Source: Eukaryota sp. GEM-RC1 (Eukaryota). From it: 64,000 nt of DNA. Position numbers and translations under genes: made by a program. The stretch is taken from assembly GCA_040285855.1 (NCBI GenBank), contig JAUFOQ010000016.1, forward strand, positions 1,860,001 to 1,924,000, given 5' to 3'. Below the pieces are notes generated by a model. That model saw only the letters and a program-made list of their open reading frames with translations, searched no databases and had not been told where the DNA came from. This document shows positions 28,335 through 62,555 of this stretch, one piece after another; position 1 is the first letter of the stretch; each line of letters starts with the position of its first letter.

Positions 28335-29172
28335 TTGATTGATTTGATTTCTTTGTGTTGACGTAGTGTGTACAGATAAATTATTTTGAAAAATTCACAT
28401 GTTATAATTCCACATTTACTACAGTAAGCAGTGTAATTTGTGTGGGTCAGAATAATTCTTCACAAATTTCTGAGAATCGAATTGGAATTATTAGATAATT
28501 AGATCACTCTAATTTTCAACATTAGGAATTCTATTTCTTGTTGCAGTAAGTAATTATTTATTCTAAAGGTACAGTAATAGACTAAACAACCAAAATTTGA
28601 TATCATTAAAACAACACCTATGCTATCAAATATTACACCAGCTTTGTCCTCAAAGAGGAACTCACAGCTAGTGAAGCTTTGGAGATGATTAGGGGAATTG
28701 TAATAAAAATACTAAAAACGATACGATTTAACCATAACAGTAATATAGTCCAAAGCAAATTCAGATATTTGGTGTAGGTACACTTCATCAAAAATCAATT
28801 TACCGAACTACGACAGTGTTCTCTTCAAGGACATCATCTTAATTTTGTTCTACATTATCTCTGACAAGAAAATTGTCTTGTTTTTACCCTAGAAAGTTTT
28901 TAAAAAAAATGTATATTTGCCAGTAATCAGTGGGAGAGCTGTGACTGTTCCCAACTTCCTGCAGTATTTTCAGCAAGTCCGTAAAAGATCAGGTTATTGC
29001 TGAAATTGTCTTTCATTCTCATTGCATATGTAAATCTGCTCCAAATATTGTCTTATTACACCAGATGTTGGTTTCCTTAGAAACATCAAAACAATTGGAG
29101 TTTCTATAGTTAATGTAGTTCATCAGCATCAGTTGTGTGAATGGTGCAAACAATCTAGAAAGACAAAAAATT

Positions 29173-30349: not shown

Positions 30350-30628
30350 GGTTCTACTAGTAGTGTGGTAATACACGTCTACTGCATTAAATTCAAATAC
30401 AATCAGTACAACACTCAACAATTTCCATAACACTACTAGCGTCTCCCTTAGAGAAATAGTCATAAATATGACTTCTTTTATTACCAGCAGTTGACATCAA
30501 AAAACAAACACTGGGAAGGGAAATGTGGTGTGCCCACTTTTGTTTTCCCACTGTTTTTCCACCCAACGTTTTTGAAAATACGGGTAATTCATTGCCTCGT
30601 GATGATACTCTAATTTAAATTGCAAAAA

Positions 30629-30702
30629 TGTTTTCGGGGAGGTTCGAACTCCCGACCATCTGTGTGTTAGACAGATATCCTAACCAACTAGACCACGAAA
30701 AC
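30629..30702 (-). tRNA. tRNA-Val(AAC)
   Basis: GTTTTCG...TCTGT-CTAACAC-ACAGA...GGGAG-TTCGAAC-CTCCC-CGAAAAC-A followed by a T-run. Confidence 0.95.
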
Positions 30703-30899
30703 TGCTTAACGACTTTGGTATGAGAATCCAACACATCTTTGCAGAACAATTTTGACCAAAGAAGACAATTGATTTAACACCACTGGAGTTATCTAAGTCT
30801 CACAACTGCCTCCAAAACTGAATCACCTCTACATTACTCAGTGAAAACGATAAGAATACAAACAGTAACAGAAACATAATAAATTGTGTTTATTAAAAC

Positions 30900-32332
30900 C
30901 TACCGTTTTAAAAGAGCAACCCCTGATTCTCCAACAATAACTAAACCACGTTCATCTTGAGTGAAAAAAGTCTGCTTCGGTCTTGATATTCTAACCAAAT
31001 CGACAGAAATTTCAACTTTTTGAGTTGGATCAAAAGGCTTTGTATCTAAAACCCAAATACTTTTGTTACAACAACCAGACATTAAAAACCACTTCTAGAA
31101 CCAGAAACAGAGCTACATTCAAGAGAGACATTTAGTGGAGGATTAGCAGGATTCCGTAGATTCCAGGAGAGAACAACATTAGAAGAATATGAAGCACATA
31201 CCAAGGATCCGTTTTCTAAACAAACAATGTCAGTAATATTTCCATCAGTTACAGATTGTTCAAGAATAGAAACGCACTTCGACTGTTTAATATCAAATAC
31301 TTGAACGTTATTATTTGAATCTCCAATAAATACTAAACTTCCATCCACGTGACACCTAATCACTTTGGGAATCACGTCATCAAGATGATATTCTTTTATG
31401 ATAGACTTGCTCTGAGCATTTAATAGTAAAGCTCTATCGTTTCCAATAACAAGGAAATGAAGAGGAACTACTGTTAAAGAAGATGAACGGAAGTTATCTA
31501 ATTCAAGATCAAAAGGAGATAATGAAATCTGTTCAACAAAGGAATCTGAAATTAATTCGTAATATTTTAAATGTTGAGAAGTAGTGAAGAGCAATCCTGG
31601 TTTAGAAAGTCTGTTCATTGAATGGAAATCTATTGGAGTTCCAATAAAGTCAAAGAAATTCTTGATTTGACCTCCAAATGACGTGAACATCAACTCCTGA
31701 TTGTGAACAAAAGCCAAGTAATCAGAATCAAGTACTTGAGACACGTGTGTAAAAGACGGATTAGGAAGGTCAAAATAAATAGGATCAGCTGTACTAAAAT
31801 CCTTAGCAAAAGGTATTGATGGTCTAGCTTTGATAAGCTTTTTCCTTTCAACAGTCAAAGCCTTGTTGATTGTGATTAATTCTTCATGAAAGTCTATAGT
31901 TGAAGTAGGCTCAGTGATGACGTCAGAGGGCTCAGAAGGTGATTGTAATTGAGCTTTCAGTAAGTCTCTTTCTGACATTAGGTCTTGAATGACTTTCTGG
32001 CTTTGTTGGTTCTTAAATTCCGCTTCTTTTAACTCTTCACGTGCAGTGGCAAGGGAGAGTCGTAGAGAATGAGTTTCAAGAATGAGAGCTTCCCATTCAC
32101 TGTGTAGGTGACCAAGAAGACCAGGAATAGACATGGTATCAGGTTGTCTTGGTTCTGTTAGAGTAGCACTCTTAAGTTCAATTAAGTCATTGGGAGAAAG
32201 AGAAGTGTTGGTAATGGGACAACGCTGGCCAGTTTCATCAAGGTATTTTAGAACAAGTTCACGTTCAAAGACATAACCTGTTGGAGAAACAACAGGGTGT
32301 TTTGGTATTGTGTTGGATATTGAGCAAAACAT
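30900..32332 (-). CDS. PRP19: Pre-mRNA processing factor 19 (U-box, coiled coil, WD40), copy 1; frameshift near 31089
   Basis: MFCSIS...PVVSP.GYVFERELV.KY...CPIT, SIPGLL.....EWEAL.LET..LR. It has GG where copy 2 has GGG. Confidence 0.93.
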
Positions 32333-34024
32333 TTTGTTGGAAGATTCAATTAAATGCCAAGCAAATGCTCAGTTTCTTATTGGTGTCAAGAACGTTGTTT
32401 AGCAGTTATATTGCATCATAAAGGGAAACTACCAGGTGCTGTGTATTGTAGATCTGAAGCAGGTAAGCCAACATTAGATCCATTCTCTGCTCTGTATCTT
32501 GTCTTGTGAGATTGACCATAGCTGTTTGATTCATCGTAATAAGCTTTTATTGTCTCCAACAGAATGTAACTGTGAAGAATCACTGTCATTTGAACAATCC
32601 AAGGACTTTGTTCTTCAATCTCTATGTACTTACTACTCAATGGCTTTAAGTACCATGGAACTTCATTTTGATGTTTATTTTCAGTTGTATCAATCATCAG
32701 TTTATTGCACAGTTATTCATACTGATATTTTGTTATTTCCATTTGTTTTTGTTTCAAAGAAGAGTGTTTACATTTCCACTTCTAGTAGTGATCCTGTTTG
32801 TGACCTTGAGGTGCTCAATAATATCCAACTCTCTTACTGCTTGGAGAAGATGTTAGTTATTTGTTTAGTTACTGATCATGAGGTTGACTTCTTGAGTTTG
32901 AACATTGATGACGTTTTGGAACTTGACAAGGAGTTTGAAGTGGTTTACAAGAGTTAGGTCACGAACTGGTTCAATCAACTGCGTTGTGATTACAGTCTTT
33001 ACCATTCATGTAAGACCATCTGTTTCCAACTCAAGCAACTGTTCTAAATTCTAGAGTACTACTCTAAAGTGATGTTGTCTCAACCACTACTCAGTGTTTA
33101 GAATGAGGGGCTCGGATTTTGAATCATAGTCCTGCTGCTATGACACTGTAGTAGTCTGTATAATCTGATCACTTTCAAAACCTTGTGTAGTTTAGTAATT
33201 TTGATTGAAAATTGAGGTAACAATTACTGGTACGGTGATGTACATAAAGCTTTTTGTTTTACAAACAAAATTTTACTCTGGGTTTTTAGTTCATCGTTTT
33301 TAGGGGAATATGGAAAAACTGGAGAGAAAGACTATTATTAGAAAAACAATCAAATGCTAAAAGACCATCGATTGTGTAGCTACGGTAAACTGACAGCACT
33401 GAATCCTATTTCCAAAATTTAAGTGTATTACAATATGTGTACGAGGCAACCACACAACAAGAAACAAAGGATAAATACAACTATTAAAACAAACTTCCTA
33501 AAGTCGAAACGTAGTTACATGTACCACAACAGCCAAGTAGAAGAACTACTATTTCAGTAGAAAGAGGTCGCAAATGGCTGAAAGTACATATTAATGTGTC
33601 TTTGTGAATTTAAAGTAATTTTCAACTTACGTTTTTTATGATACAGTATGTATTGCTGTGTCCTTCATTTTCCAAGCTTACTTCAATTTCAGAGCAAATC
33701 AGGAGAGCAGTAGTTATCTATACCTTCAGTCAAATACACGTCAAGGAGACTATCATCATCCACGGATTGACTTAAGTAACTACATAAAAGAAGTGTTAGA
33801 TTCTAACACCCCAACTGCTCTAAATAATTGCGTCGCTTAAATTTTTGGTCATGTCATTGCTGTCCACAAAGAGCTGGCATGTCTATAATGCTAGTAATCG
33901 CCAGAAGGTGCTGGTGGATGAACATACAGCTCAACAAAAAGAAAACAATCTTCAAGACACTATTTGAAACAGCGAGCTCAAAAACGACTTAATCGTTTAA
34001 GAAACAAGGCTGGACTGTCTCCAC

Positions 34025-36707
34025 ATGCTTTTGAAGACCCCAGTACGGACAGCCTCCAAAGTTCCCCCTGACTCAATGAACAGAAAACGAAGAGGACTTC
34101 CGCTTGTTCCTCCTGTCTCTACTCCTTCTAAAAGACCAAGTTTCCAAGATACAGAGGACCCAATGTCTTCTACCAGGATTGCACCAATTCTTAAAGATAT
34201 CCCCTCTTGATTTACTCTTTGGTTATTTGTATGTTTCCCAACACCAAGATCATCCTTCTTTACATTGGATCTATTGTTGTGTTTGTAGGCTTAAACTACG
34301 TTTTCTCCACATACCTTCTATTCCTTCCTCTTCGATCAAAGTTCGATGTTACTGTAATCTTCTGGGAATCCTCTCTCCCTTACATCTTGCTTCTCTTTTA
34401 TGGTTCCTGGGCTATCCCTCACGCTCTCGTCAGCTACATTGTTCTAAGACAAGCAGTTTTTAGAATGCTTTGGGGGACCAGTACTTTGTTCTATCTAGCA
34501 ATCGTACAAGCAACATTTGCCATCACTACCTCTCTCATTGCTCGTAATCGCTATAAGTTAGACTTCCGAAGGCCTAAGCGAGAAGATATCGTTGCATATG
34601 TTCCGTATATCTTTGTTGGTCCTTTTATTGCGTATTGGTTTGCCATACTTTGGGTTCACTTGATTGAGGATTTCCCTATAACAATATTGGAAGGTGTTTT
34701 AATCTGGATGACTGTGAGCTCTTTTACGTTCGCTTTGATTGCACCCTTCTTTGGTCAGATTTTGTATTGTTTTGATCATTTAATTCTCAAATACACGCCG
34801 TATTTTGCCAGTGCGATTCCTTCTCAATATAGAACTTCTTCTATGGACCATGGCTGTTTCTATTGTATACATCCACCCTTTAAGGAAATTCTAATGCATT
34901 TGGTGATCATTATCGTCTCTGGGATCTATTTTGGTCTTCTTCTTTGGGTATCCGCCATTGACTCTCCTTTCTACCAATTTGTTCTTGTTCCTTTTGGTTT
35001 CATCTTCCTCTATCTCGGGTTTCGTCCAACTGTAACTTGGGTTTGACTACGTTCTTGCTCTAATTCCAGCTATTCAGTTTATTCATTGTTATTCTGCTCA
35101 TGGCCGTTCTCTTTGGAGTTGAATTATTCCCAGGTATAGGCGTAACTTTCTTCTCTCTTGGGGGAGGTCTCCTTGTTCTGTTCGCTGCCATTAACTCCGA
35201 CGATCTTCGAAGAACAAAGAAGGAAGTGGAGGATCGGTTGAAAAGTAAAGTTGACAGAAGGACGCAGCAACTAGAAGTGTCCAGAAATCATTTGGCTGCT
35301 TTTCTTGATACCATTAGTAAGTTACCTGCAGGGATTAGCCACGAAATCAAGACATCCTTGAACCATTGTGTATCTTCTCTAGAGATTCTATGTCAGGATG
35401 AGGCCAAGTGTTTGCATTCCCAATGTTCACGACCTCTGCACGGGCTTCACTTCTTAGTTGATGATTTGCTATTCAAGTATACTAATCTTGACCTTACTGG
35501 AACTTCATCTTTGAATGTTCTGTCCTTGGTTGAATCCGTTTCAAACTCTTTGATATTGTTAATACATGATGTACATCTTGAGTACTATGAAACTTCTTTT
35601 CATTCATTTGAGTATATTGTTTCAAGTCATGACCTTGGACTTACTAAATTGTTTCAGTTCATGTTTAGGCAATTGTTCTGGACTAAAACACGTGTAATCA
35701 TGAAGGTATCTCAACAATTGATTGATGATTCTCTTTTGTTTTCCTTTTCTGGAGAAGATAGTTTCAATCACTTGACCTCGTCACGTGTTGGTCGTCGAAG
35801 TTCTGTCGATGCTAGTGTTGTTGATTTACTGGAAATGTCACATCAACTAGCCGATTCATTAGGATTTACCTTTATTCATTCGTTTAATCCTGACTCTGGT
35901 CATTTAGTATTGGAGTTGAGCTTTTCGAGCTTTGTTATAGAGAAAAGAGATCGATCTGAGGTGTTGTCTCTAATTTCTGATAGATTCTCCTCCTTTGCTA
36001 TCCACTCCTTGTCTGAAACAACACGGGATTACCTTTGTCTACTGCTCTCTCCTATATTATCTTTAGTAGAAGATATTGAAAAGGAAAAAGACATTGACTC
36101 TGACCGCAATTTGATCATTATTGATGAAAACACTATGAGTGCTGATGATATTGATCGACTCTTAGCTCAAATCAATTCGAAAAAAGAAGGTGGTTTCCCG
36201 ATCTTTATAGGCAATTCTTTCAGAAGAAATTGTATTGCTCAGCCTCTTATTTCAACTCGTTTCTTTAACTTTTTCAACCGTTTGCTTTCCACTTCAGCTT
36301 CTCACGATCTTCCTCCAGTTCTTGTGGTTGATGATAACAAAATGAATGTAAAGCTTCTGCAGGCTCTGCTTAGATCACAACAATTGGCCTCTGACAGTGC
36401 TTTTGATGGGGAAGAAGCTTTTCTAAGGTGTAAAAAGAGAATTAATGAAGGGAATCCTTATTTTTTAATTTTGATGGATATTTTGATGCCAAAAATGGAT
36501 GGTGTGGAGGCGACTAAACTCATTCGTGCTTTTGAACGTACCTTCCAAATACAGACTTCTTCTGCTATCCTGGCAGTGAGTGCACACGCAGAAGCTAACT
36601 CAAAAATTATGGATGATGTTAGATCTGTGGGATTTAACGAATTCGTTTCTAAGCCTTTAAAACTGAGTCAATTGAAGCATTTTCTTGTTAAGTATGGCAT
36701 TTCTTAA
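34025..36707 (+). CDS. Membrane hybrid histidine-kinase-like protein (multi-TM, HisKA, degenerate HATPase, receiver); two frameshifts
   Basis: Multiple hydrophobic helices, VDRRT.QL linker, H-box ISHEIKTSLN, and receiver VLVVDDN...LILMDILMPKMDG...AVSA...FVSKP. Frames join at the C-run near 34203 and the G-run near 35040. Confidence 0.8.
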
Positions 36708-39263: not shown

Positions 39264-40202
39264 ATGTCTGACTCGATATCGTCTCAAATTGTGGATGTTT
39301 CTCACAAGGCAGATGCATCTGGGTATCTCTGTAAGTTTCCTGTTATTTTTGACAAAGCTCCATTGTTCCCTAACGACAACACCCTTTGTGGCCTAGTTCT
39401 TCGCCAGAGTAACTCTGTTCTTTTCAAAAAACCCAAGATTAACAAGGCTTTACTTGATGACGTACCATCAAACCCTTTCTTACCTCATCACCCCGATTCC
39501 TTTGTTACAGAACTCTCGCACTTTTACAACCTACTCTTAAACAAGTTTGTTGCTGTTCCCTGTCATTGTCTACTAGTGACGAAACAGTTTCTTCCACAAT
39601 GGCTTCCAGTGTGCTATATTGATTGTGAAGCCGTCGATCGCGTTTTAAAGGACATTGATGGCTTTGTTTTCTTTAACAACGGCCTCAACAGTGGAACAAG
39701 TCAACCTCACAAACACCTGCAGTTCATCCCACTTCCTCTTTCAAAAGAGGTGAACTGTCCACTACGAACTATGGTAGCCTCTATGAATGTTGACTTCTAT
39801 TCAGTTGCAACAATCAATCAGTTTTCATTCAAGCATGCTGTTGTTAAGTTCAAACACTTGGATTATACTCGACCAGACTTCCCAATGTTGATCCTGCGTG
39901 CCTATCAAGACATTGCATTGTTCTTAGGGATCAAGCCCTTCCTGTCACAGTATAGTGATTACTTAGCTCATGATTTTGATGATTTGCAGATTTATCATCA
40001 TGTTGAGCATTTGTTGCCAAGTTATTCCTTCATTGTTTTACGAGATTTTGTATTTATTACACTTCGAAAGTCATCTAATGCTTTCGGAATTGATCTTAAT
40101 TCTAGTGCATTCATGGGATCAATTTATGTCAAAACTAATGAGCAGTTTGAATTTGTTCGTGAAAATGGAATTATTAAAATATTAGAAGAATTGGCTGAAT
40201 AA
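39264..40202 (+). CDS. Ap4A phosphorylase / ATP adenylyltransferase (Apa1/2 family)
   Basis: NPFLP, LLNKF...P.H.LLVT..F..Q and FFNNG.NSG.SQPHKHLQF. Confidence 0.88.
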   Translation: MSDSISSQIVDVSHKADASGYLCKFPVIFDKAPLFPNDNTLCGLVLRQSNSVLFKKPKINKALLDDVPSNPFLPHHPDSFVTELSHFYNLLLNKFVAVPCHCLLVTKQFLPQWLPVCYIDCEAVDRVLKDIDGFVFFNNGLNSGTSQPHKHLQFIPLPLSKEVNCPLRTMVASMNVDFYSVATINQFSFKHAVVKFKHLDYTRPDFPMLILRAYQDIALFLGIKPFLSQYSDYLAHDFDDLQIYHHVEHLLPSYSFIVLRDFVFITLRKSSNAFGIDLNSSAFMGSIYVKTNEQFEFVRENGIIKILEELAE

Positions 40203-40514
40203 TTTCCCCTCCCATTTCCCCTTTAATACCGTTAGTTTTATCGTAAAGGTATTCCACAGAGTAGAATCTCTGCTTAATATAAAACATGTACAAATTAAGT
40301 TCAATGAATAGTAATGAATCACCATTGCCTATTAAAAAACCCGTAAAATTTGTTCTCATTTTGTTAAAATTTCTGGAAAAATCACCAGTCACTTCCGGAG
40401 GAAGATCTCGAAGAAAATGATTACTTTTTCCTGCGAAACAGGCCTGTGACATTGCAAGAGACACGTATTAGCCAACATCTAAATCCAAGATTTCTCTTAA
40501 TTGGGAATAAATGG

Positions 40515-41382
40515 AATTATTCTTGTTTTCTAACAATTTCTTGGTCTCAGTAGTGTTTACTTTGAATTTCACGGACTTTTTGTGGACCTCGAAGATTATT
40601 AATTCTGATTATTGCTCTGATTTCCTAGCGAATGGCAAAGGAAAAACTAATATGAAATCACAATTAAACAAGATTGTTTTTATACATTACCTAACCTTCA
40701 TTCTGGCCTAGCAAAATCAAAATTGATCTCACAAGAACGCGACTGAATCCTTGGATGATCTTGGATAAGTTGACAATACAGTTAATAAAGTTGTATCTTT
40801 AGAGAAGCTTCTAAGGTGTATTGTTTCCATATTACTAACTAAAGTCACACTCAACCAAAAATGCCATGATTGAACTAATACATGAGCATGGCTTCCAAAT
40901 TGTACAGATGCAATTAGATCTTTGATATTCGAACGACTTAAAAAAACTTAATTATTCTTGTTTTCTAACAATTTCTTGGTCTCAGTAGTGTTTACTTTGA
41001 ATTTCACGGACTTTTGTGGACCTCGAAGATTATTAATTCTGATTATTGCTCTGATTTCCTAGCGAATGGCAAAGGAAAAACTAATATGAAATCACAATTA
41101 AACAAGATTGTTTTTATACATTACCTAACCTTCATTCTGGCCTAGCAAAATCAAAATTGATCTCACAAGAACGCGACTGAATCCTTGGATGATCTTGGAT
41201 AAGTTGACAATACAGTTAATAAAGTTGTATCTTTAGAGAAGCTTCTAAGGTGTATTGTTTCCATATTACTAACTAAAGTCACACTCAACCAAAAATGCCA
41301 TGATTGAACTAATACATGAGCATGGCTTCCAAATTGTACAGATGCAATTAGATCTTTGATATTCGAACGACTTAAAAAAACT
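40515..41382. repeat. Tandem duplication of a ~434-bp unit
   Basis: 40515-40948 and 40950-41382 appear identical except for a T5/T4 run. Confidence 0.95.
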
Positions 41383-41518
41383 GAAGTTATTAACGAGGAA
41401 GTTTAAACAAACAAAAATGCCATGATTGAACTAATACATGAGCATGGCGGTGTACATGGAGTACATGGCGACCATTTACATCTGTTAATCTGTTCTTCTT
41501 CTGAATTGTCCAGAGAAA

Positions 41519-41845
41519 CTAAGATATACCATCAAGCTCTTGCTCAAGATGTTCCAATTGTATCTGAAGATTGGAAATTTTGAATAATGTTACGTAAACA
41601 ATGTGATCCGTAGTAAATGGTATTCTAGTTGGTGGGTTTGAATACATCACAAAGTCGAAACAAAGTTCCCAAAACGGCTGTTGGGTCAGCCACTGGGAAT
41701 GCCCAGGCTCGTAAAGAGCGTACAGTCTCGCAAGAAGACAGCCATATACAGCAATCCGTTGTTTGGAACAGAACTGTTCATCAATGGCCAGACACACATG
41801 GGGCTCGAAGAATTTGCCAATGGTGGTACCGAGTGTAATGGTCAT
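41519..41845 (-). CDS. Truncated paralog of the Fanzor N-terminus (108 aa; may be a pseudogene)
   Basis: Colinear with the first ~95 aa of the 48706 protein: KFF.P, QF, AV...LLAR, WLT.Q.FW..CF.FV..S.P, PF..D..VY..L. Confidence 0.8.
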   Translation of the reverse strand: MTITLGTTIGKFFEPHVCLAIDEQFCSKQRIAVYGCLLARLYALYEPGHSQWLTQQPFWELCFDFVMYSNPPTRIPFTTDHIVYVTLFKISNLQIQLEHLEQELDGIS

Positions 41846-43111
41846 GTGGTGATTTTGATGATTTACATTCAGTTTCCATTCAATTTTAGAAGGTTTTTTA
41901 TCTTAACTATTTTATTCAAAAGAATATACATCCGTGAATGTGGTCAACGCCAATTGAATGTAATGGGTTGTGAATTCGTAATCTTACTCTATGTTTCATA
42001 CAGATACACATTTAAGAAACATTGATTGGTCATATGTTTCATGCATTTCACAACTTCTGTAAGCTGTGGGACTTCCTCTACCAGTAAGAATTATCAATTA
42101 CAATTTGTAACTTGGTCTCTTACATTCTATAGTCTTGGACTTCACATTTGGAGCCCAACACTAACCTTTCTTCTCTTCACACACTTTCCTTCTCAAAATA
42201 CTGTTCATAGCACTTCCTTTCTCCTTCTGTTCTCCTCTTTTGCTTTGATATAAATAAGGGACTACGGCTTTGGTAGAGACGTTGTGCTGGAGGAAGATTC
42301 TGTTGTTGTGGTGATACTCCTTCATGTATCTCAGATATACTTGCTGTCTTGTGTTCCTCATAGCTATCTCTTTCTTTGGTATACTGTATCATCTTGAATG
42401 ACGGCAATTTATCACTGCCTTGTCTTTGAACTCACCAGTATCATCAGTAGAATAGCCCGCCTTTTAGCTTTTATTTCACTTTTTATGAGTCATGACTTTG
42501 TTTTCCGATATTTACGTGGGTGTACAGTGTTCGTGATCAGTTCATGAACCACTGTTCTTCACATGATATATGTAAGATGGTGTTAGACTATGGTACTTTC
42601 AGCACTAGCTATTTATTGAGAATATACATACGTTTACCTAATAAAACGATCACACATATCTGCTATACACAGAGCTTCGATAACTCGGGACTACACACAA
42701 AGGAAATGGAGAAATTGGCTTACCACATAAGAACCCAAGATGGTTGTTATCTAGACATAAGTAGTTTCAAGCAGCCCTTAGGTTTACAAGTAACAAGACT
42801 GACATGTAATGTTTGGCATTGATCATGTCAAAAGTGTATACCAGTTTGAAGGAGTCAGGAGAGTCAAGGATTATGAGTTTGGACACACTATTACAGAGAC
42901 ACTGGAAGGAAAAGACGGATATGAATGCATTTTGATGTGAACAGTCTGTGGGAAAGAGCTGTAAGAAAGTTGTGAAATATGCATTTCAGGTGAAAAGCAC
43001 AGTAGTAGTAGAAGAATATGACAAAATTATTTTCAAGACTTACTTATTTTCATTACATTTGGGAGGGAGGGTGGGTTTCTTCCTCTCGTGTACACCTCTT
43101 TTGAACGTTCT

Positions 43112-43399
43112 CAATGTAGGATGAGTTCCAGCTCTCCTCTCTCTACACCGCTCCAACTGCACCGCTCCAATGTATTGTGGGTTCTTCTGTATCTCCAATT
43201 TCGTTCCGTTCAGACTTCACTAAAGCTTTGATTGCAAAGGGATTGGGGATGAAGTATCCAATGTAGGATGAGTTCCAGCTCTCCTCTCTCTACACCGCTC
43301 CAACTGCACCGCTCCAATGTATTGTGGGTTCTTCTGTATCTCCAATTCCGTTCCGTTCAGACTTCACTAAAGCTTTGATTGCAAAGGGATTGGGGATGA
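43112..43399. repeat. Tandem duplication, 147-bp period
   Basis: 43112-43252 and 43259-43399 are near-identical (one substitution seen). Confidence 0.95.
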
Positions 43400-43543
43400 C
43401 GTAGTTGTAGTTGTAGTTTTATATGTATTTTGACTGGGCCAATGTCTTTTGATTGTTGAGCCTAGTCATGTTGGGTTTTCCTTCTTTATTCGTTTTCACT
43501 GTGTGATTTTGAATTTAGAATGAAAGTCTCAAATAAATACAAC

Positions 43544-44116
43544 TCAACAACCGCAACCTGAGCGACGCTGTAATAGATTTAAAGTCTCATCTGAATCACA
43601 CGACTCAACCTGAGCTGATACACACAAATCTGCAATAGTTTCAAACACTTCAACAACACTATCGTTAAGTTTGGCTGAAGTATCAAAATACGGCATTTTC
43701 TTCAACACTGCAAACTCCTCAGCTTGAGTAGTGCTGATAACACGTTGCGCAGTCAGGTCAGTTTTGTTACCAACTATCAGAGCCTGGAAGTTCTCAGGAC
43801 AATGTGATTGAGCTTCTTGTATCCAAGATGACATAGATTCAAAAGAAGACCGATTGGTCACGTCAAATACAAAGATGACTGCTTGAGCTTGACGAAATGA
43901 ACTCAAAGTAATAGAACGGAAGCGCTCCTGTCCACCTGTATCGAAAAGACGTAAAGTTATTGATTTGTCTCGAACAGATACTACTCTAGACATATAATTG
44001 ATTCCAATAGTTGAAACTGTATTTGCAGGAAATTCCCCATTGAGAAAGGTGTGCAGTAAGCTTGTTTTTCCCACACCGGAATCACCAATTAACAGGAGAG
44101 AAACTGAAGAAGTCAT
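43544..44116 (-). CDS. Rab-family small GTPase
   Basis: GDSGVGKT, STIG, DTGGQERFRSIT, GNKTD, TSAK and a C-terminal CGC. Confidence 0.93.
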   Translation of the reverse strand: MTSSVSLLLIGDSGVGKTSLLHTFLNGEFPANTVSTIGINYMSRVVSVRDKSITLRLFDTGGQERFRSITLSSFRQAQAVIFVFDVTNRSSFESMSSWIQEAQSHCPENFQALIVGNKTDLTAQRVISTTQAEEFAVLKKMPYFDTSAKLNDSVVEVFETIADLCVSAQVESCDSDETLNLLQRRSGCGC

Positions 44117-44154
44117 AGAGAGGTTTTGGTGATTAGTTCAATTCTCAATTCAAG

Positions 44155-45255
44155 ATGACCACACCATCTCTTGTTCTATCGTTGTCGTTAGATTCTTTGT
44201 TTGCACTTTCCTTCAATGGTGAACACAGTTCTCTAGATCCTCAATTATGTGTTGCCAAAAATTTCTCATACGATCAACTCACCGTAACTGTCCTTTTCCT
44301 TCCTAGTATACCTTCAGCTTCTTTATCCTCTTTTCCTCCATGTATACAGCAGCTCCCAGGTCTTGATTCTCTCACCAACGATCCCTCTTCAATCTCTTCA
44401 ATCCTTTCCCACCGTACATCCTTTGTTGTAGCACCCCATTCTCACAACATTGCAACTCCTTTCGTTTCTCTTTCAAAACAGATTAATTGTTGCTTTGTCC
44501 TAGTTACCCCTGGACATTCTGTTACTCTAAATCTCTTCCAACAACCCTTTCGTCACTTAGTTTTTCCTTTTCCTTTTATCAGTACTCTTCTTTCAGAGCA
44601 GGAGCCCAAACTGAAGGGGAAATTGAGTCGACCGAATGAGTGTATCTTTTGTTTGGGGAAGTTTGGGTCATTATTGCGAAGTTTTGACCGATGTCACGTT
44701 TCTTTAGTTCAAAATTCAAAATTTCAAATATTTCCGCATTTTTCTATTTACTCTGTTGAACATTTGAATTTGCGCCAATTTGTTGATAATTATGACGTTG
44801 ATCCGATTTTTGAACTCTGCAAACTAGTTTCGATCAATTTCTTTGAAAATTTTGCAGATTCGGATGATTTCTTTGTTTGTTTTTCTGAGTTTTCCTCCAA
44901 GTCATCAACTGAACATGTTGTTTTTGATCTCTTTCCAATCAAATCTGATGGGTCACAACTTTTTCTGCACTCATTGCAAAATCAATCAATTCTGATTGAA
45001 GAAATACCTGCTGTTTCCGATCTTAATTCTTCTATCACGTCATTGGACCCTTCTTGTCAATTTGGACTGGTGTTCTTGTTTTCTAGAGATTTCTCAGCTA
45101 TTTACCTCCTCAAAAGTCATCAAAAGTCAATCAAAAGTGATCTCATCAAACACGTGGTCTTGCCGTTTCTGGACGACTGGGACACGGAAAAGGGTGATTA
45201 TAAATCTGTTTTTGATAACTTCCAAAAGTTTTTTAAAGGAGTATTTGGTTTTTAG
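44155..45255 (+). CDS. Hypothetical protein
   Basis: 366-aa ATG ORF, divergent from the Rab gene with 38 bp between starts. Confidence 0.6.
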   Translation: MTTPSLVLSLSLDSLFALSFNGEHSSLDPQLCVAKNFSYDQLTVTVLFLPSIPSASLSSFPPCIQQLPGLDSLTNDPSSISSILSHRTSFVVAPHSHNIATPFVSLSKQINCCFVLVTPGHSVTLNLFQQPFRHLVFPFPFISTLLSEQEPKLKGKLSRPNECIFCLGKFGSLLRSFDRCHVSLVQNSKFQIFPHFSIYSVEHLNLRQFVDNYDVDPIFELCKLVSINFFENFADSDDFFVCFSEFSSKSSTEHVVFDLFPIKSDGSQLFLHSLQNQSILIEEIPAVSDLNSSITSLDPSCQFGLVFLFSRDFSAIYLLKSHQKSIKSDLIKHVVLPFLDDWDTEKGDYKSVFDNFQKFFKGVFGF

Positions 45256-46263
45256 TCTGTGATTTTCGTTTTCAGAACAACTTTATTTCTAAAATTGCGA
45301 ATTATGCTGTAACTCCAACAGTCCATCATTACTGTTATTTTCTTGTTTAGTTCACTTTATAGTCATTATTATGACTTCTTCTCTGGTTGAATGTGTTATG
45401 TTCTCGTCATAATATGAATTACGTGAACACGGTGTATATTGTCTCCTTGTACTTCGTGTTTTTTAATACCATTTTGGGTAATATATCTAGTTACTTCCCA
45501 AAAATACCGAACTGCCCTGTTTTCTTGAATTTTTCCTGTTCTTTGATAGTGCAACAGTTACTCCAAAATAGAAACTGGCTGTCACAAAATATATAAAGAA
45601 GTGACTTGTGCCTATTATTTTTATAATGCAACTGTTTTTGAAGCTGGAATGGAGTGTTCAAGTTTTATAAAGTACAACTTTTCATTCGCTTGGCAGGTAA
45701 AACAAACGGTCAAATTAGGTTGAATCATACAAATGTTCATGATCGTTTCTGTGTTCAAAAATAACAATTAGCCTGGATTAAACTACTGTAATTAAATCCC
45801 AGGCTATTATAAAATTCAGACTATTTAAACCGTTTAATGTCACTAAGGTATGTATAAAGGAGTCCGTGTCCGTATTCAATTCTCAATTTTCAAAAGTGGT
45901 ATTCATAATTTGTTTTATCATTTGTTCTGACTGATTTGAAAACCTCTTGAAGATCAATCAAACTCTGATCTGAAGATTCCACATGCATGAAGTGTTTCAT
46001 CACTGTTACTACATTGTAGTAGCAGTTTTTGAACCAAATCTTCAACATTGTTAAAAAGAGTCTCAATGACTCAAGAAGTAGTGGGCCGCCATGGTTTAAA
46101 GGCACTGTTCAAAGAAGCAAATTCTGTTGTTATATCTCTTTACAAAATGTTTGTAATTGTTTGCACAATTCATTAGCATTAGTGTTAACAGCTTAGAATG
46201 AATGTTAATAAAACTACATGTAATTACTGTTTTTGAAGACTGAATTTTCCATTTTTTCAACTA

Positions 46264-48456
46264 ATGAGTAAACTAGTCTTCAACAGCATTAAAGGACATC
46301 CCACTACTTTGGCCTGTGCTATTGCATCTGAGCGAAAAGAACTACCAGCGTCCTTCAACTATGTGGATTATCAACATTTCCCTGTTGTTTTAGACACGGC
46401 AAGAGGTCCTTTAGTGGATCCCATTGCACTACTCTATGTCATTGATCCTTCCCTGTTCCCTGCTTCCCAGCTATCCCACATCTTCACTCTCATCAATCAA
46501 TGTGTTTACTTCCTCTCCAAGGCTCGTCTTTTCCTAGCAAATGCCACTGGTTCTGCTTCGATTAAACCTGATCTAGTAGAACGTTCCAGTCAATTCATAT
46601 CCGATTTCATCAACTCTCTATCATCTAACATTTCTTCTCCCAATCACTTCTTCATTGGAGATTCCCTTACTGCTGCTGATATCGTGATCTTTTCCTACCT
46701 CTTCCCCTTCCTTTCATCTCAGTCAAACCTCTTTTCATCACCCCCTGAACCTCTTGTATCTTGGTTTAATCATCTCTCTTCAATCTCCTCCTTCCATAAC
46801 GCCATCGCTCTTGTCTGTAGCACCCCTGAACACGTTCTCTCTTCCCTTAAACTTTTCATTGAAGTTCTCCCTTCAGAAGTCCAACCCCACCAACTTTCCA
46901 CCCCCTCCAAAACCCCCGTCTACATCACCACTCCTATCTACTACGTCAATGGCACCCCCCACGTTGGTCATGTTTACACTACCCTACTATGCGACGTTGT
47001 CTCTAGATGGTATAGAACCAGAGGACTTCCTGTTTACTTCCAAACTGGTACTGACGAACATGGTCAGAAGGTAGCAGAGTCTGCAATTGCTAAGGGTTTA
47101 ACACCTAAACAAATGTGTGATGAGGTTTCAACTATGTTTAAGGACGTTTTTGATAACTTTAATTTGAGTTATGATCGATTTATCAGAACCACTGACGAAG
47201 ATCACGGTAAGGCTGTTGCTGTTATGTGGAATAAGCTCAAAGACAACGGGCACATCTACATGGGTGTCCACGAGGGCTGGTACTGCCTTTCAGATGAGGC
47301 CTTCTTGACAGAGAGTCAGGTGGAGGACAAGGAGATCAATGGAGAGGTTGTTAAGGTCTCCAAAGAGAGTGGAAATAAGGTTGTAAGATTCAAAGAAGAG
47401 AATTATATGTTTAGGTTATCATCTTTCCAAGACAAGTTGTTAGAGTATTTCGAAAAGAACCCTGATTTCATTGTTCCAAAGTTTAGACAGTCTGAAGTTG
47501 AACAATTTATCAGATCTGGTCTTTGTGACTTCTCTGTGTCAAGATCTAATGTTTCATGGGGAATCAAAGTTCCTGACGATCCTTCTCACACAATCTATGT
47601 CTGGATAGATGCCCTTACTAACTACTTGACTGGTATTGGCTTTCCTAATGAGAATAAAGGATGGCCAGCTGACGTCCACGTACTAGCTAAGGATATCACG
47701 CGATTCCATGCTATCTATTGGCCAGCAATGCTCATGGGAGCGGGACTAGAGATTCCAAAGAAGTTAGTTATTCACGGATGGTGGACTGCTAATAAGACCA
47801 AAATTTCAAAAAGTTTGGGAAATGTATTTGATCCTTTTGAAGTAGCTCAGAAGCACGGTCTGGATGTTCTTCGTTACTTCTTGTGTCGTGAAGCCTCCAT
47901 GGCTACTGACGGTGATTACAGTGAGAATGCTTTGATTGCTAGAAAGAACAGTGATTTGGCCAATGATCTCGGAAACCTTCTATGTAGAGCTGTTTCTGTC
48001 TCTCTGGTTCCCAATCAAACTGTCCCTACGTGTGGGGAGTTGATTGAAGAGGATAACGTGATTGTGAGTGCAGTTAATAACCTGCCTATTTTGTATGATC
48101 AGGCTTTAGAGAACTTCAATATCCAAGGAGGTTTGAAGGAAGTTTGGTGTGTCTTGGATCTTTTGAATAAGTATATCGTTGATCAAGCTCCTTGGAGGAC
48201 TATGAAAGTGGGATCAGATGAAGCCAAGGCAAGGGTAGAAACAAACATGTATGTATTGGCTGAGTCACTGAGAATTGTTGCTTGTTGTTTATCTTCAGTT
48301 ATGCCTCAAGTTTGTGATATAATCTTTGATCAACTTGCTGTTCCTAAAGAGTTAAGGACAGGTGATGATAGTTTTAATTTTGGACTGTTACCAGCTGGGT
48401 TGAAGTATCCTGAAGAAAAAGCTATTCTTTTTGAGAAAACGAAGTTAGAGGAATAA
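46264..48456 (+). CDS. Methionyl-tRNA synthetase with N-terminal GST-like domain
   Basis: FFIGDSLTAADI (GST-C-like), YITTPIYYVNGTPHVGH, GTDEHGQK, YVWIDAL, KDITRFH, KISKSLGN, LANDLGNL. Confidence 0.95.
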   Translation: MSKLVFNSIKGHPTTLACAIASERKELPASFNYVDYQHFPVVLDTARGPLVDPIALLYVIDPSLFPASQLSHIFTLINQCVYFLSKARLFLANATGSASIKPDLVERSSQFISDFINSLSSNISSPNHFFIGDSLTAADIVIFSYLFPFLSSQSNLFSSPPEPLVSWFNHLSSISSFHNAIALVCSTPEHVLSSLKLFIEVLPSEVQPHQLSTPSKTPVYITTPIYYVNGTPHVGHVYTTLLCDVVSRWYRTRGLPVYFQTGTDEHGQKVAESAIAKGLTPKQMCDEVSTMFKDVFDNFNLSYDRFIRTTDEDHGKAVAVMWNKLKDNGHIYMGVHEGWYCLSDEAFLTESQVEDKEINGEVVKVSKESGNKVVRFKEENYMFRLSSFQDKLLEYFEKNPDFIVPKFRQSEVEQFIRSGLCDFSVSRSNVSWGIKVPDDPSHTIYVWIDALTNYLTGIGFPNENKGWPADVHVLAKDITRFHAIYWPAMLMGAGLEIPKKLVIHGWWTANKTKISKSLGNVFDPFEVAQKHGLDVLRYFLCREASMATDGDYSENALIARKNSDLANDLGNLLCRAVSVSLVPNQTVPTCGELIEEDNVIVSAVNNLPILYDQALENFNIQGGLKEVWCVLDLLNKYIVDQAPWRTMKVGSDEAKARVETNMYVLAESLRIVACCLSSVMPQVCDIIFDQLAVPKELRTGDDSFNFGLLPAGLKYPEEKAILFEKTKLEE

Positions 48457-48705
48457 TGGAAAAATCTTAGTTCTTCTGAATCAATAAATATCCAGATGGA
48501 TCATGTTTTTCTGTCATCTTGCAGAAGATCTACAAACTCCACCAGGACAAGCTAGCACATGTAGTAAAGATTTGGATAAGAACATTCGACAAACAGAAGC
48601 TTGGTGTTGTATCATTTTCAGATGTTGACGCAATGAAACATACTGTAGTTCCTCCATAAACCCAACATACAATAAAATCCACAATATTTCATAAATTTAT
48701 TGAAC

Positions 48706-50504
48706 ATGACTACCACGACCTCCACGGTCACGTGTTCACTTGCCAAGTTTTTTGACCCGCCAGCTCGGGCAGTGATGAACAGGCAATTTCGGTACCTTCG
48801 AGACGTTGCTGTTCAGTCAACTTTACTGGCCCGGGTGTTTGTGCTCCAGCACCCCCACTTAGCACGCTGGTTGACTGACCAGCGTTTCTGGTACCAGTGC
48901 TTTGGGTTCGTTGCTCACTCTGAGCCGAAAGTAAACCGCCCCTTTGAGAACGACAATGGAGTGTACACTGCACTGCATCTGTCGTCGAGTCTTCCGCCAG
49001 TATCCATTTGGCCGTTCCCCCCTCTTGGCCGACACAAACCGACACGCTGGTGTTACTCACAACTCTTGAGTGATAGGTCACGACAGTTGTCTGAAGCTTT
49101 TCAACAACTGATGGCCGATGGTCCAGTCAGTTGGAAGCTGAACTTCTTCCGGACCGCTGCTGTATTCCTCGACTGCCCGACCCCTAAGGGATACGCTTCT
49201 GCTGTTGTACGTGGTGCTCAACCTGGAGCATCACTGCAGCAATGGTGGAATGCTCATCACCAGCAAACTCTGGCCACCTTTAATCACTTAGTCGGGGATG
49301 TTGTCCTGTTCAATAATCTATTGACAGAACGGTCTGTTGCACTCAATGAAACGAACACCTCATTTCTGTTCGCAGCTGGACTGAACCTGTTGTCCGCTCT
49401 CGAGGATGCTGCGCCAGATTGTATGCGCCGCCATGCTCTAGTTCCAATGGCCAGCTATGCTCCAGTGTTTGTATCATTCTCTCAGGAAGTGGAGAGACAC
49501 TTCACAGAGTTCAACTTCTCAAGTACTCTCAAAAGTAACCCACTGAAAACGTTTAGAAAACGCCCCCGTTTCCAGACTTACACCCTGGCCTCTGATGGTG
49601 TAAGTTTGAGGATAACTTTTCCACAAAGCCGAAAAAAACAAGGAATCGCCCTACCAAGGAGCAGTTTGAGTCAAGGAGGGCAAGTGGCTCCGAAGACTTC
49701 AAGGTTAAGTCTCGAAAGAGAAAGTGTAACCTACAGAAGAAAGTGGCTCCGTCACGACGACGTGCGAGAACAGCTGATTTCGAACCTCCTCCTGATGAAG
49801 ATTGGTTATGGTGTGCAATTGATCCCAACCACAGTAACCTATGTGGTTGGTCTATTGGAACCAACACTGACTATTTATTGGACTCTGGTATTACACTGGC
49901 ACCAAAAGCCAAGGCTATCAATACTGTTATGTTTGGTGCTTTGAGCAACTCTACGTCGAACACCTATTCCGTTCAGAACATGTACCTGTATCTGCTCGAG
50001 ATATCGACCACTATTGTTGATCAATATATGAGTAAGAACAGTCTAGAACGGCGTTTATTAAATGGGAACAGGCCCAACCTACGGAGAAACAAGTTCGACT
50101 TCTTCATAAGAAAACAGAAACGATTTGATTTATTTGCTCAAAATTTGAAAAATATGGCACAAGGAAGCCAAATCAGAGTTTGGTTTGGGACAGGAGGTGC
50201 TAGCCCATCTAGGCAGCAAGTGAAGTCTCCAAGAAAGGGATTCCTTCAATATCTCAAAAGATTCTTTCCCGTTATTATGGGCGATGAATACTTCACTTCC
50301 GCAAAAACTAACTGCTGTAAAGTGAGGCATCAGTTGATATATCATGAAGTAGATGGAGTAAGAAGAGTGAATCACGCCATATTTCGATGTCCAACATGTG
50401 CTCAGGTTTGGTCAAGAGATATTTCAGCCTCCAGAAATCAACTTGAGATCGCTATAGAGGGTTACTTATTTGGAACTAGGCCTGAAGCTTTCCAACGTAC
50501 TTAA
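48706..50504 (+). CDS. Fanzor (TnpB-derived RNA-guided endonuclease, Fanzor1-like); one frameshift near 49617-49638
   Basis: SDGVSLRITF (TDG-type motif), RuvC-I AIDP, VWFG, DEYFTS, CC...CPTC, RuvC-III WSRDISASRN and terminal RP.AF.R. Restoring one base gives about 599 aa. Confidence 0.88.
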
Positions 50505-50600
50505 TTATTATCTATGTATTGGCCGATGAAATTCAAGTTACCTTGAATGGAGGCCGTAATGTGGTGCTTCGGCAGAAAAGAGGTGAGTATGAAGAAGCTT
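50505..50600 (+). ncRNA. Candidate Fanzor omegaRNA (scaffold plus guide; boundaries approximate)
   Basis: GGCC(50521)/GGCC(50552) enclose a perfect ATTCAAG-TTAC-CTTGAAT hairpin, followed by TGC-TTCG-GCA (cUUCGg tetraloop, 50565-50574), directly after the stop codon. Confidence 0.6.
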
Positions 50601-50871
50601 TCTTTGAAAGTGTAAAGTATGCATTTCTTGGAAAATCCACAGTAAGTTAATACACTTTGTTTTTTGTGATACTTCGCTTACAAATGATTTAACCAACAGC
50701 ATCTTTACCATTGTATGGGTTAAACCCATGTGAATGGACATCGTTCGTTCTCCTACTTTTAGTAGTAGAGTAATACTGTTACTGTTATTGTACTAGACTA
50801 CTAGAGGTTTATAGCTGACCATCCAAATTTGACAAACAAATTTTTCTTAACATAATTTGACCCTGTCCGAA

Positions 50872-52050
50872 ATGCAATGCCTAGACAAACAACTTGACTC
50901 TCTTTATTTTACCCGAGATTATATCTTTCCTGTGGATAATTCGGTACTTCTTTGTAAACGAGATGAAGTTCTTCTGCAACTTACCAACTTAGAATCCAAC
51001 AATCAATTACCGAAAGCTCTCCTATGGTTTTATAGAGGTAGAACGCTTGCTGGATCAAAATCTGATCTTGAATTAGCCGAAGCTTACATCTCTAAAGCAA
51101 TCAAACTGGATTCATCTCTTGTTCATGCATACTTCTATCTAGCTGATATTCACACTCTTCGCCAGCAATGGAACTCAGCCCAACAGCTTCTTGAAACGTC
51201 CGTTTGTAAGTATCCCACACCGCAAGCTTTAAGACTTCTGTCTAGAGTTATCAGACAAAAGACTCCACCATCAATTGACAGATCTGTTTCGTTAGCTAAA
51301 GAAGCTCTAGATCTTGAAGTCAACTCTTCTGAAGGATGGCTTGTTTACGCATTGGCACTCACTACTAAGTTCTTTCATAGTACGCTTCCAACTCCACAGT
51401 CTCTAGAAAAGTGTCTATCTGCCTTTAACATGGCTTGTAAACTAGGACAACTCTACAATCCTGACCTGTTTTTTAATAGGGGGCAAGTTTTTAAATATTT
51501 AGAACGCTATCAAGAAGCACTCGATGACTTCAGCAAAGCACTGCAGCTCGATTCTACTTTATTAATATCATCCACAGAAATATCTTCAATAGTTCAATTC
51601 TTGAAATCCATATCAAGCACTCTAAATCGTTTCGAATCCAACCTCAAGAAAAAGAAACGAGATAAGTTACTAGCGGGATTTCGACAAGAAGAGACTTTGT
51701 ATTCTACACACAATATTCCTCCATTTGGAAAGCCTCTTGCACTTAAAGTATTTGCTCTTCTATCATCCACAGACAAAATCCCTTCTTCAGTGTTTTGTTA
51801 TGACTCTGAACTGTCGTGGATCGTGCTTTCTGTCTATAATGTAAAGATTGAGAGCTTTAAAGTGGGTCAGACCCTGATGCTTTATAATGCAAGGGTAGTA
51901 GATGATGAAATTCACTGGGAAGATGAACTTTTCAAATTTCGAGTGATACGGATTGTCAACATTTCTGATCTCAACATAATAGGGACAAACATTGGTTCTC
52001 ACCACCTGTCAGCTCCAATATGCACTGTTAACAGTGTGGAAAAACTATAA
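50872..52050 (+). CDS. TTC5: Tetratricopeptide repeat protein 5 (TPR + OB)
   Basis: LDSLY..RD.IF, AE..ISKAIKLD, SVSLAKEAL.L, NPDLFFNR...KYLE.Y.EAL..F..A..LD, and a C-terminal OB-like D....VLSVYN. Confidence 0.85.
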   Translation: MQCLDKQLDSLYFTRDYIFPVDNSVLLCKRDEVLLQLTNLESNNQLPKALLWFYRGRTLAGSKSDLELAEAYISKAIKLDSSLVHAYFYLADIHTLRQQWNSAQQLLETSVCKYPTPQALRLLSRVIRQKTPPSIDRSVSLAKEALDLEVNSSEGWLVYALALTTKFFHSTLPTPQSLEKCLSAFNMACKLGQLYNPDLFFNRGQVFKYLERYQEALDDFSKALQLDSTLLISSTEISSIVQFLKSISSTLNRFESNLKKKKRDKLLAGFRQEETLYSTHNIPPFGKPLALKVFALLSSTDKIPSSVFCYDSELSWIVLSVYNVKIESFKVGQTLMLYNARVVDDEIHWEDELFKFRVIRIVNISDLNIIGTNIGSHHLSAPICTVNSVEKL

Positions 52051-52583: not shown

Positions 52584-54254
52584 ACAAGATCTGAACGTCA
52601 GAGAGACATTATTTAAGAAGTCTGTAAGCATTAGAGATGAATTTTGCAGAGTTGCAACTAGAACCACTTGCCATAACGCCAATACATCCATAAGCTTATG
52701 GAATTTTTTCTCATACAGTGTGTTCTTTTCAGTGGTATGTCTACTTCCATAAGTTACAACTACGTCTATATAAATCCAAATCATTTGTTATCATTCACGA
52801 AAAGTCTATAGCACTACAATGTACATCTGAGATCTGAAGGTGCTGCAGTTTGGTTAGAACAAGACAATTGATTATGAAAGTACAGTATATATTATGTAAT
52901 TCATAAATGATTTTTTGTCTTCAGCCTCGAATAGGAGTCGTTGTTTCCAAATCAAAAGAAAAGAGTACTAAAAGTGGTCCTGCAATAGAATAGTAAAAAA
53001 AAATCAATCTAAACTTTATTCGGTGCCCAATAAGATTACATTCCTGCAAAAGCATGAAATTGCAAAAACAAACAAATAATACTAAGATTAAATCCAAACG
53101 ACTTCATCACCATCCGGTAAAAGATTACGTTTTTCAACATTAACCTTGACACCAAACTTGTACAATTTCTCAACTAGTCAAGAGAAATAGAAAGGCATAT
53201 TCCGATTTAGGCAAGACACTATGCGGTTTTTCCATTCAGCCATTCTAAACTTACACTTCTCTTCTTTACACAGTTCTTCGAACTAAAATAGAATAGTTAT
53301 TCAACTAAGCACCACACTGCCCTATAGACGGAATAACAAGCAATTATTTATTAACCAAGCACACTTTGTGATCAAAATTGCAGTTTTGTCAAATGTCCAA
53401 ACTGAATAGAAATAAAATGCATAAAAATGTGTTTACTGATTCTAGTAAGTCAGATTCGCACATTATAACACTCACTTATATTTTGCGGTTGTTAGTGAAA
53501 ATAGAACTCTTTTACAAACTAATGTCTCTTTCCTGCGACATTCTTCAGCCTCACAACATGTCGAATCATCGAATCGTTTCAAAGTGCTTCTAAAGGTACA
53601 TTTAGAGAGATACTCCAGAGTAAATGAGTATATAGTATTTTATTTCTCGCCGCTTACATTTTATGAATCAGTAAGTTAATCTAGTGCTTTTATAGAGGAA
53701 AGAGTTCTAATTATACGGATGTTTTGAAGAATCTTAATGAAAATTCATAATCCAAGTTTTTATGGCAAATTTAATGAAATAATTTTTTTCATCTCCAAAG
53801 CTTTATTAGCAGTGAGTTCCTTTTATGAGGACAAAGCTGTTGTAAGATTCGATAGCAACGGGTGTTGCTTTAAAGAAATCAAATTTTAGTTGTTTGATCT
53901 ATTACACCTCTAATAAAATAAAGAGTCTAAAACTCAATATCATCAAAACAAACGGTGTCAGTTCTATTTGGAACCAACACTAGCTGATCCTAAACATGTT
54001 CTAATAGAACCAACACTAAACCTTTACTTTGTTTGAGAATTAAAGGCATTTATAGTTAGATAATGATAAGTTTGTTACTTGTCAAGAAAACTGAACCACT
54101 TTTAAGACATTGAATGTGATTAACAGCCATCACAAATGATGCATTACTCTTACAATGTGGGAGCTAGTAAATGATATTCTGCACTAGAAATTAAATAACA
54201 GATCTAGATCAATCGATAATCCTTGTGTTAAATCATTGACCGATTTAATGATAA

Positions 54255-59413: not shown

Positions 59414-59611
59414 GTTTTAATAAACACAATTAGTTATGTTTCTGTTACTGTTTGTATTCTTATCGTCTTCACTGAAGAATGTAGAGGGGATTCAGTTTTG
59501 GAGGCAGTTGTGACACTTAGATAGCTCCAGTGGTGTCAAATCAATTGTCTTCTTTAGTATAACATTGATGTGCAAAGATGTGTTGGATTCTCAACCATAA
59601 GCAACTAAGAA

Positions 59612-59684
59612 GTTTTCGTGGTCTAGTTGGTTAGGATATCTGTCTAACACACAGATGGTCGGGAGTTCGAACCTCCCGAAAACA
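59612..59684 (+). tRNA. tRNA-Val(AAC), copy 2
   Basis: Identical to 30629-30702 except one C missing in the C-run at the T-stem/acceptor junction. Confidence 0.9.
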
Positions 59685-62378: not shown

Positions 62379-62555
62379 TTGTTTTTGTGTAGATTATGTA
62401 TTTTATTGGTCGTTTTTGTGAACGAAGCTTTTCATCCATTATAAACCTTTAAAGAAAGTTTTTCAGTATTTCAATTAAGAACTTTTAGGTTAAAACTGGA
62501 CAATTATACCGTAATTTAAGTAACAGAGGACATTAGGATGGCTTACTTAAAGTGT

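Follow-up and report, generated by a model that had tools for sequence, protein, structure and literature searches.

A stand-alone Fanzor1 N-terminal open reading frame in a skoliomonad genome is very probably a relic joined tail to tail with a decayed BRCT sequence

Does an intact open reading frame that matches only the beginning of a Fanzor, an RNA-guided nuclease carried by transposons, encode a small protein in its own right, or is it debris of a lost element? We addressed this question for a 108-aa ORF, running from ATG to TAG on the minus strand at 41519-41845 of a 64,000-nucleotide stretch of Eukaryota sp. GEM-RC1 DNA (the window). We judge, with a probability of about 0.88, that it consists of the 5′-most ~90 codons of a Fanzor1 gene from a family of its own, placed tail to tail with a decayed BRCT sequence, and that a deletion or rearrangement left it behind without a function. 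This reading follows from the homology to Fanzor1, the point at which that homology ends, the overlap with the BRCT sequence, a sibling copy with 91% identity and the lack of further Fanzor sequence in the window. Genes are densely packed in this eukaryotic DNA, among them those for Ap4A phosphorylase, a striatin-like protein, a Ras-family GTPase, MetRS and a TTC5-like protein, and the ORF sits in a 3.3-kb gap without host genes (40202 to 43544). The closest named relatives of the window proteins come from Eukaryota sp. GEM-RC1, TZLM1-RC and TZLM3-RCL, which match by name the skoliomonads, free-living metamonads, described in excerpts of PMC11316075. Statements that reach beyond the window are based on annotated proteins.

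Residues 2-93 of the ORF align without gaps to residues 5-96 of a Fanzor encoded on the plus strand 6.9 kb away (48706-50504), with 36 of 92 residues identical (39%; E 4e-18, within the window). This bears out the colinearity reported in the initial annotation, and the pair of Trp-rich motifs quoted there is present as written. Comparison of ORF residues 1-93 with 11 family members by hhalign gave a probability of 99.3 and an E-value of 7e-21, and the ORF is 37.5% identical over 96 columns to P0055, a full-length relative whose structure we modelled; the ORF thus carries homology to the Fanzor1 N-terminus. Pfam and NCBIfam returned no match for it, its ESM Atlas matches were all below 0.8, and no relative was seen in viral contigs (0/53 pattern matches) or metagenome contigs (0/322 and 0/121). 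We assign the Fanzor1-derived 5′ fragment, codons 1 to ~90, to 41575-41845 (minus strand), from homology reaching residue 87-93 and from the modelled relative. Its left limit (± ~10 nt) is taken from the meeting point of the Fanzor and BRCT matches.

The neighbouring gene is a Fanzor1 of family 1 with RuvC D/E/D residues and a four-Cys finger (PF07282, E 7.8e-6). It serves as the point of reference and is not the parent of the ORF. Codon identity between the two is 54, 60 and 23% at positions 1, 2 and 3, respectively (93 codons); the third positions are saturated, so that the ORF is no decayed copy of the neighbour. The N-terminus of the ORF is 33-40% identical to three Fanzor families, which are 52-56% identical to one another. 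The distance between ORF and neighbour reflects long divergence under selection, and the existence of a sibling copy, P0069, indicates that this divergence took place in a full-length parent.

P0069 is a 99-aa protein annotated in Eukaryota sp. GEM-RC1 on another contig, and shares with ORF residues 15-58 a 44-residue stretch in which 40 residues are identical (91%). It has an Arg at the conserved Trp52, stops where the ORF has the conserved Trp59 and begins with an unrelated N-terminus; it is known as a protein model only, and its locus could exceed that model. Among proteins of 59-189 aa P0069 was the sole match, and no second copy with the end or the tail of the ORF was found. A near-identical full-length parent, named in the initial annotation, together with a lack of transcription, as the sign of a simple deletion remnant, was not seen among 10 candidates scored (annotated proteins of 190-2000 aa), which is weak evidence. 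In a phylogenetic tree the ORF and P0069 form a clade (97/98) whose stem, at 0.57, is as long as those of other families. Their terminal branches measure 0 for the ORF and 0.11 for P0069, an asymmetry that is not significant over only 44 shared residues. Several residues of the ORF that are odd relative to the neighbour recur in P0058, P0078 and P0063, fragments from TZLM1-RC that continue into downstream Fanzor motifs. P0058 and P0078, with several residues in common with the ORF, were considered as its sister group and set aside, as the tree does not resolve this. GEM-RC1 contains at least four Fanzor1 families, namely those of P0001, P0002/P0033, P0060/P0105 and the ORF. Thus, the suggestion of a relic of another family holds, given the saturated third positions and the sibling, but the family is at least the fourth and not the second.

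To what kind of enzyme did the fragment belong? Among 1.84 billion representatives, a profile search picked out 34 proteins, and all 11 that were looked up are from Eukaryota sp. GEM-RC1, TZLM1-RC and TZLM3-RCL. The catalytic D, E and D residues and the four-Cys finger are present in P0001, P0033, P0044, P0055, P0056 and P0105. In the relatives, TS is separated from the first Cys by four residues instead of two, and full-length relatives match PF07282 with E-values of 9e-7 to 6e-4. The model of P0055, built with 40 sequences, had a pLDDT of 73 (block means within residues 1-120 were 78-93); an earlier model of P0044 with 12 sequences was unusable (pLDDT 40, best Foldseek E 0.14). All seven Foldseek matches of the P0055 model with E<=0.001 were chains of SpuFz1, PpFz1 or GtFz1 (E 2.4e-10 to SpuFz1). 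Z-scores were 15.0-17.9 against Fz1 entries, the highest being for GtFz1 (rmsd 7.6, 439 aligned), versus 11.7 for the next entry. The full-length relatives are thus predicted to have the overall Fz1 fold, and they are like SpuFz1 (8gkh, 9ceu-9cez), GtFz1 (9cer) and PpFz1 (9cf0, 9cf1) in fold, RuvC D/E/D residues and four-Cys finger. In sequence, these families and their skoliomonad host are distant from the solved Fz1s: the structural matches show 11-13% identity, and a search of the PDB by sequence gave no Fanzor match for them.

The skoliomonad Fanzor1 families are multi-copy and divergent, with clusters of 8, 3, 28, 10, 14 and 3 members among P0001-P0106. With lengths of ~590-640 aa and intact catalytic motifs, they are candidate new Fz1 enzymes. 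We found no literature on metamonad or skoliomonad Fanzors, and the locus tables of Fanzor surveys may list these families; the family of the ORF itself is undescribed. We also noted P0076 (277 aa), in which a Fanzor N-terminal piece appears by eye to follow a protease-like region, and P0065 (1232 aa), an ORF made up of tandem repeats in which the Fanzor N-terminus is matched repeatedly but weakly.

A one-base frame break near 49616, where a short T run is followed by an A7 run, divides the neighbouring Fanzor gene in two. All seven annotated family-1 models that span the break, one of which is probably the window's own copy, are discontinuous there. Six skip it as a small intron, which removes a strand conserved in other families, and one is out of frame. 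A systematic homopolymer error is the most likely cause, since housekeeping genes show the same errors; a real -1 shift common to family 1 is the less favoured, though conceivable, reading. The RPA1-like gene (1414-2791, minus strand) and the USP14/Ubp6-like gene (55230-56260, plus strand) are each split over two frames at a short homopolymer, indicating residual one-base errors in the assembly. The GEMRC genome is 48% repetitive and was assembled from Nanopore reads with Illumina correction, according to excerpts of PMC11316075. Some Fanzor fragments in the databases are therefore probably artefacts of one-base homopolymer errors, not true truncations, and counts of N-terminal fragments must be read with care. 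The truncation of the ORF does not stem from such an error, because no frame continues.

Opposite the end of the ORF lies a decayed, incomplete BRCT-coding frame at 41407-41583 (plus strand, 58 codons from stop to stop). PF00533 matches its residues 2-56 at profile positions 20-73 of 78 (E 0.0029), and the match runs through the conserved C-terminal BRCT Trp. The frame does not amount to a complete BRCT domain: it scores 18.3 bits against a curated cut-off of 21.3, and profile positions 1-19 and 74-78 are absent. Taken alone, the Pfam value is moderate, since it came after scans of ~24 frames and proteins and the motif was first spotted by eye. In the ESM Atlas the frame fell on BRCT clusters at 0.91, with nine of the ten best family matches to the same family or clan; phmmer gave no BRCT match in the PDB. 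When parts of the frame were searched with Pfam, residues 23-58 scored E 0.19, residues 1-37 and 29-58 gave nothing, and without the part that overlaps the ORF the BRCT match vanished. From its sequence, the frame appears to be the relic of a BRCT gene. Its start is contained in a near-perfect 434-bp tandem duplication (99% identical) with a third copy of 41 bp (40515-41448, plus strand), which represents rearranged remains of the same decayed gene. The 434-bp repeat was also considered as a relic of a retroelement or of an IS200 TnpA and rejected, as neither tblastn with 15 retroelement proteins nor Pfam on its short frames gave a match.

The two sequences meet inside the ORF. ORF codons 88-108 face BRCT-frame residues 38-59 on the other strand, and codons 91-92 face the conserved BRCT Trp (41572-41574). 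The similarity to Fanzor is lost over codons 87-93, just short of the Trp-Pro loop seen in most families, and the BRCT frame ends two codons past its conserved Trp. Thus, both sequences appear to have been cut, meeting near 41575. Two coding sequences cut in mid-domain point to a deletion or rearrangement; had a transposon inserted here, one of its ends would mark the joint. The acidic tail, codons ~91-108 with the stop (41519-41574, minus strand), is the antisense of BRCT-frame residues 38-56. It had been described as unrelated, and it is indeed not derived from Fanzor; it is not free-standing either, but the opposite strand of the BRCT relic. Its length is ordinary for an antisense frame: antisense open runs of >=20 codons were found at 28% of 1645 sampled positions of window genes, with a median of 10 and a mean of 15 codons.

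We propose that a full-length element of the ORF's Fanzor1 family once stood at this locus. A break would have taken away all that lay past codon ~90, namely the rest of REC, most of WED, RuvC, TNB and the omegaRNA end, and at the joint the BRCT sequence would have been severed directly past its Trp. The antisense BRCT strand would then have supplied the last ~18 codons, with the frame closing at the first chance stop. In favour of a relic, the flanking DNA is locally rearranged and the window contains five retroelement fragments. An intact frame requires no selection to explain it, since about half of neutral runs keep it: in simulated decay with an assumed 0.1 indels per substitution, the 87-codon frame was intact in 50% of runs at 2% change per copy (~4 differences in 44 residues), 71% at 1% and 36% at 3%.

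The remainder of the element was not found in the window. A family HMM run over the whole window (--max, six frames) matched only the neighbour and the ORF, with the next best match at E 0.13, in agreement with the earlier observation that no RuvC follows the ORF. The hallmark of Fanzor1, a C-terminal D...[TS][TS]..C4 zinc finger...RD motif (Bao and Jurka 2013), is absent from the ORF and from the DNA 3′ of it in any frame. Nor did we see the omegaRNA-like hairpins whose lack had been reported: none of 12 folded 120-nt windows downstream had z < -1.44, a test of low power, since the neighbour's own 3′ region reached only z -1.92 (best of 8). Rfam gave no match at E<=1 in 40000-51000, and the DNA 3′ of the ORF was not significantly similar to the 3′ end of the neighbour (p 0.42, a weak test). 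This DNA is accounted for by the BRCT relic. Upstream, one of nine windows (42121-42240) folds at z -2.81. Two candidates picked out by eye, a decayed Fanzor 3′ end on the plus strand at 42800-43010 and a shared upstream motif, were rejected as not significant (blastn E 0.18, shuffle p 0.12-0.56, no HMM match).

What the fragment covers was read from the P0055 model, onto which the ORF maps as a strand (3-8) and helices at 15-45, 47-54, 56-67 and 83-95. The other strands of the N-terminal half, at 250-301, are outside its reach, and it stops ahead of the long helix 111-147. The matched stretch would thus be one WED strand and four REC helices, so that "N-terminal domain", as the ORF was first described, overstates it: the complete REC lobe (WED and REC) is not there, and the ORF holds only ~15% of a Fanzor1-size protein. 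In SpuFz1, residues 21-25 are in WED and the TAM contacts are R96, Q129, Q130, N133 and R291, as given in excerpts of PMC10432273; residue 1 of the P0055 model aligns to SpuFz1 residue 20. By this end-to-end offset, the ORF would keep the loop Arg and end before the TAM-reading helix. Taken from the same offset and not from a residue-level alignment, the loop Arg74 may be the counterpart of the Arg that anchors DNA in Fz1, R85 in GtFz1 and R96 in SpuFz1 (excerpts of PMC11423790 and PMC10432273). OmegaRNA binds RuvC/TNB and the RuvC-WED junction according to the former source; these being absent, the ORF is without omegaRNA-binding surfaces. By analogy with Fz1 structures, any peptide made from it would amount to part of a helical bundle, unable to load omegaRNA or read the TAM.

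We consider it very unlikely that an accidental fragment was expressed and kept as a nuclease-less mini-protein, which would damp cutting by full-length Fanzors, either through competition for the TAM-proximal DNA groove or by swapping into their REC lobe. We give as little credence to a host-kept N-terminal peptide (WED strand, four REC helices, DNA-anchoring Arg) that would be expressed and, as a natural anti-Fanzor, restrain the genome's several active Fanzor1 families in dominant-negative fashion. The open frame retains its ATG and most conserved residues, including Arg74, which speaks for such a protein and against a relic, and several Fanzor families with intact catalytic motifs are present in the same genome. 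N-terminal-only pieces make up 12 of the 34 library matches, with ends at profile positions 37 to 182 (the repetitive P0065 was left out of the fragment count and kept in the denominator), and all three RuvC motifs are present in only three. Four of these 12 pieces end at positions 94-110, close to position 96 of the ORF, which again weighs against a relic. However, the four represent different families, their tails are unrelated, and annotation probably misses pieces shorter than ~100 aa, so that survivors would accumulate at the length of the ORF. The C-terminus of the ORF is an accidental by-product of the antisense fusion, the one candidate for a second copy (P0069) does not share its end, and the ORF is absent among annotated proteins, although four neighbouring host genes are annotated. 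It also stops short of the TAM-reading helix, by the offset, and is without the omegaRNA interface. A decoy role would require an unguided partial helical bundle to rival the intact enzyme, and nothing in our results suggests this. The proposal of a retained regulator or decoy has thus gained no positive support.

The ORF corresponds to neither a TldR nor a Fanzor ghost locus. TldR proteins, nuclease-dead TnpB repressors with a complete fold and a guide RNA that have lost catalysis alone, are the nearest known precedent for a useful non-cutting protein of the TnpB family. In contrast to their full-length TnpB fold with an inactivated RuvC, the ORF has 108 aa and no RuvC fold, and the RNA-binding lobe is wholly absent. 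Judged on titles and the starts of abstracts, the literature searched contained no report of an N-terminal-only Fanzor regulator, and excerpts of bioRxiv 2023.08.09.552727 offered nothing of relevance. Fanzor ghost loci, in which omegaRNA lies between inverted repeats without a gene (134 copies; excerpts of PMC10432273), are likewise nuclease-less derivatives of a Fanzor element. However, they keep both ends and the guide RNA, whereas the ORF appears to be a one-off, and keeps a 5′ coding piece with its 3′ side lost and replaced. Partial copies are normal for Fanzor1, as 19 of 42 SpuFz loci in S. punctatus are full-length according to the same excerpts. Truncated CRe-1/2/3 copies, as described in part of PMC3627910, have lost their 5′ ends and kept their 3′ ends, the opposite of the ORF.

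Less likely still is that the ORF is an internally deleted Fanzor with a later helix as its tail, or the first exon of a spliced gene. MAFFT sets the tail on a conserved Gln-Leu...Asp-Gly helix (family residues ~128-142), but the placement shifts with the sequence set, and we rejected it because matches of the tail to Fanzor residues 90-330 were not significant against shuffles (p 0.07-0.73, six tests). Moreover, the same bases encode the conserved C-terminal half of the BRCT on the opposite strand, and no downstream Fanzor exon was found in any frame. The least likely reading, an assembly misjoin between two repeats with a longer Fanzor at the true locus, could draw on the uncorrected one-base errors in housekeeping genes and on the 99%-identical tandem duplication that the joint adjoins, but the visible errors are short homopolymers and not joins, intact host genes lie on both sides of the 3.3-kb gap, and long-read coverage is 119x if the window is from the GEMRC genome published in PMC11316075, as stated in excerpts of that source.

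As an ordinary relic the ORF matters little, being one more partial Fanzor copy. It would show how fusion to an unrelated pseudogene, tail to tail, can produce a seemingly intact mini-ORF that ends in a novel tail. Of more use is the family context gained along the way, with several divergent multi-copy Fanzor1 families in skoliomonad genomes. Were the ORF a functional mini-protein after all, it would be the first natural Fanzor regulator in the literature searched, and would provide an off-switch for Fanzor editors.

Other features of the window were noted in passing. At 34231-36707, an ORF for a membrane protein precedes one whose product carries a response-regulator domain at its C-terminus (PF00072, E 2e-16); the two probably form a single hybrid histidine kinase that the assembly has split. 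Five 3′ fragments of one protein family (a 37-member cluster), found by tblastn, lie at 5477-6349, 13744-13953, 62550-62768, 2936-3175 and 53145-53282; we take the family, by eye and with no Pfam match, to resemble the restriction-like endonuclease end of non-LTR retrotransposons. A 2.3-kb inverted duplication (30624-32959 and 57352-59689, 96% identical) carries a gene labelled Prp19-like by eye, with ORFs of 416 and 477 aa in the two copies. Just downstream of the GTPase gene, a 145-bp unit is present in two tandem copies that are 99% identical (43112-43403), and a dispersed non-coding repeat occurs in three partial copies with 84-85% identity (3210-3271, 28574-28739 and 53789-53905).
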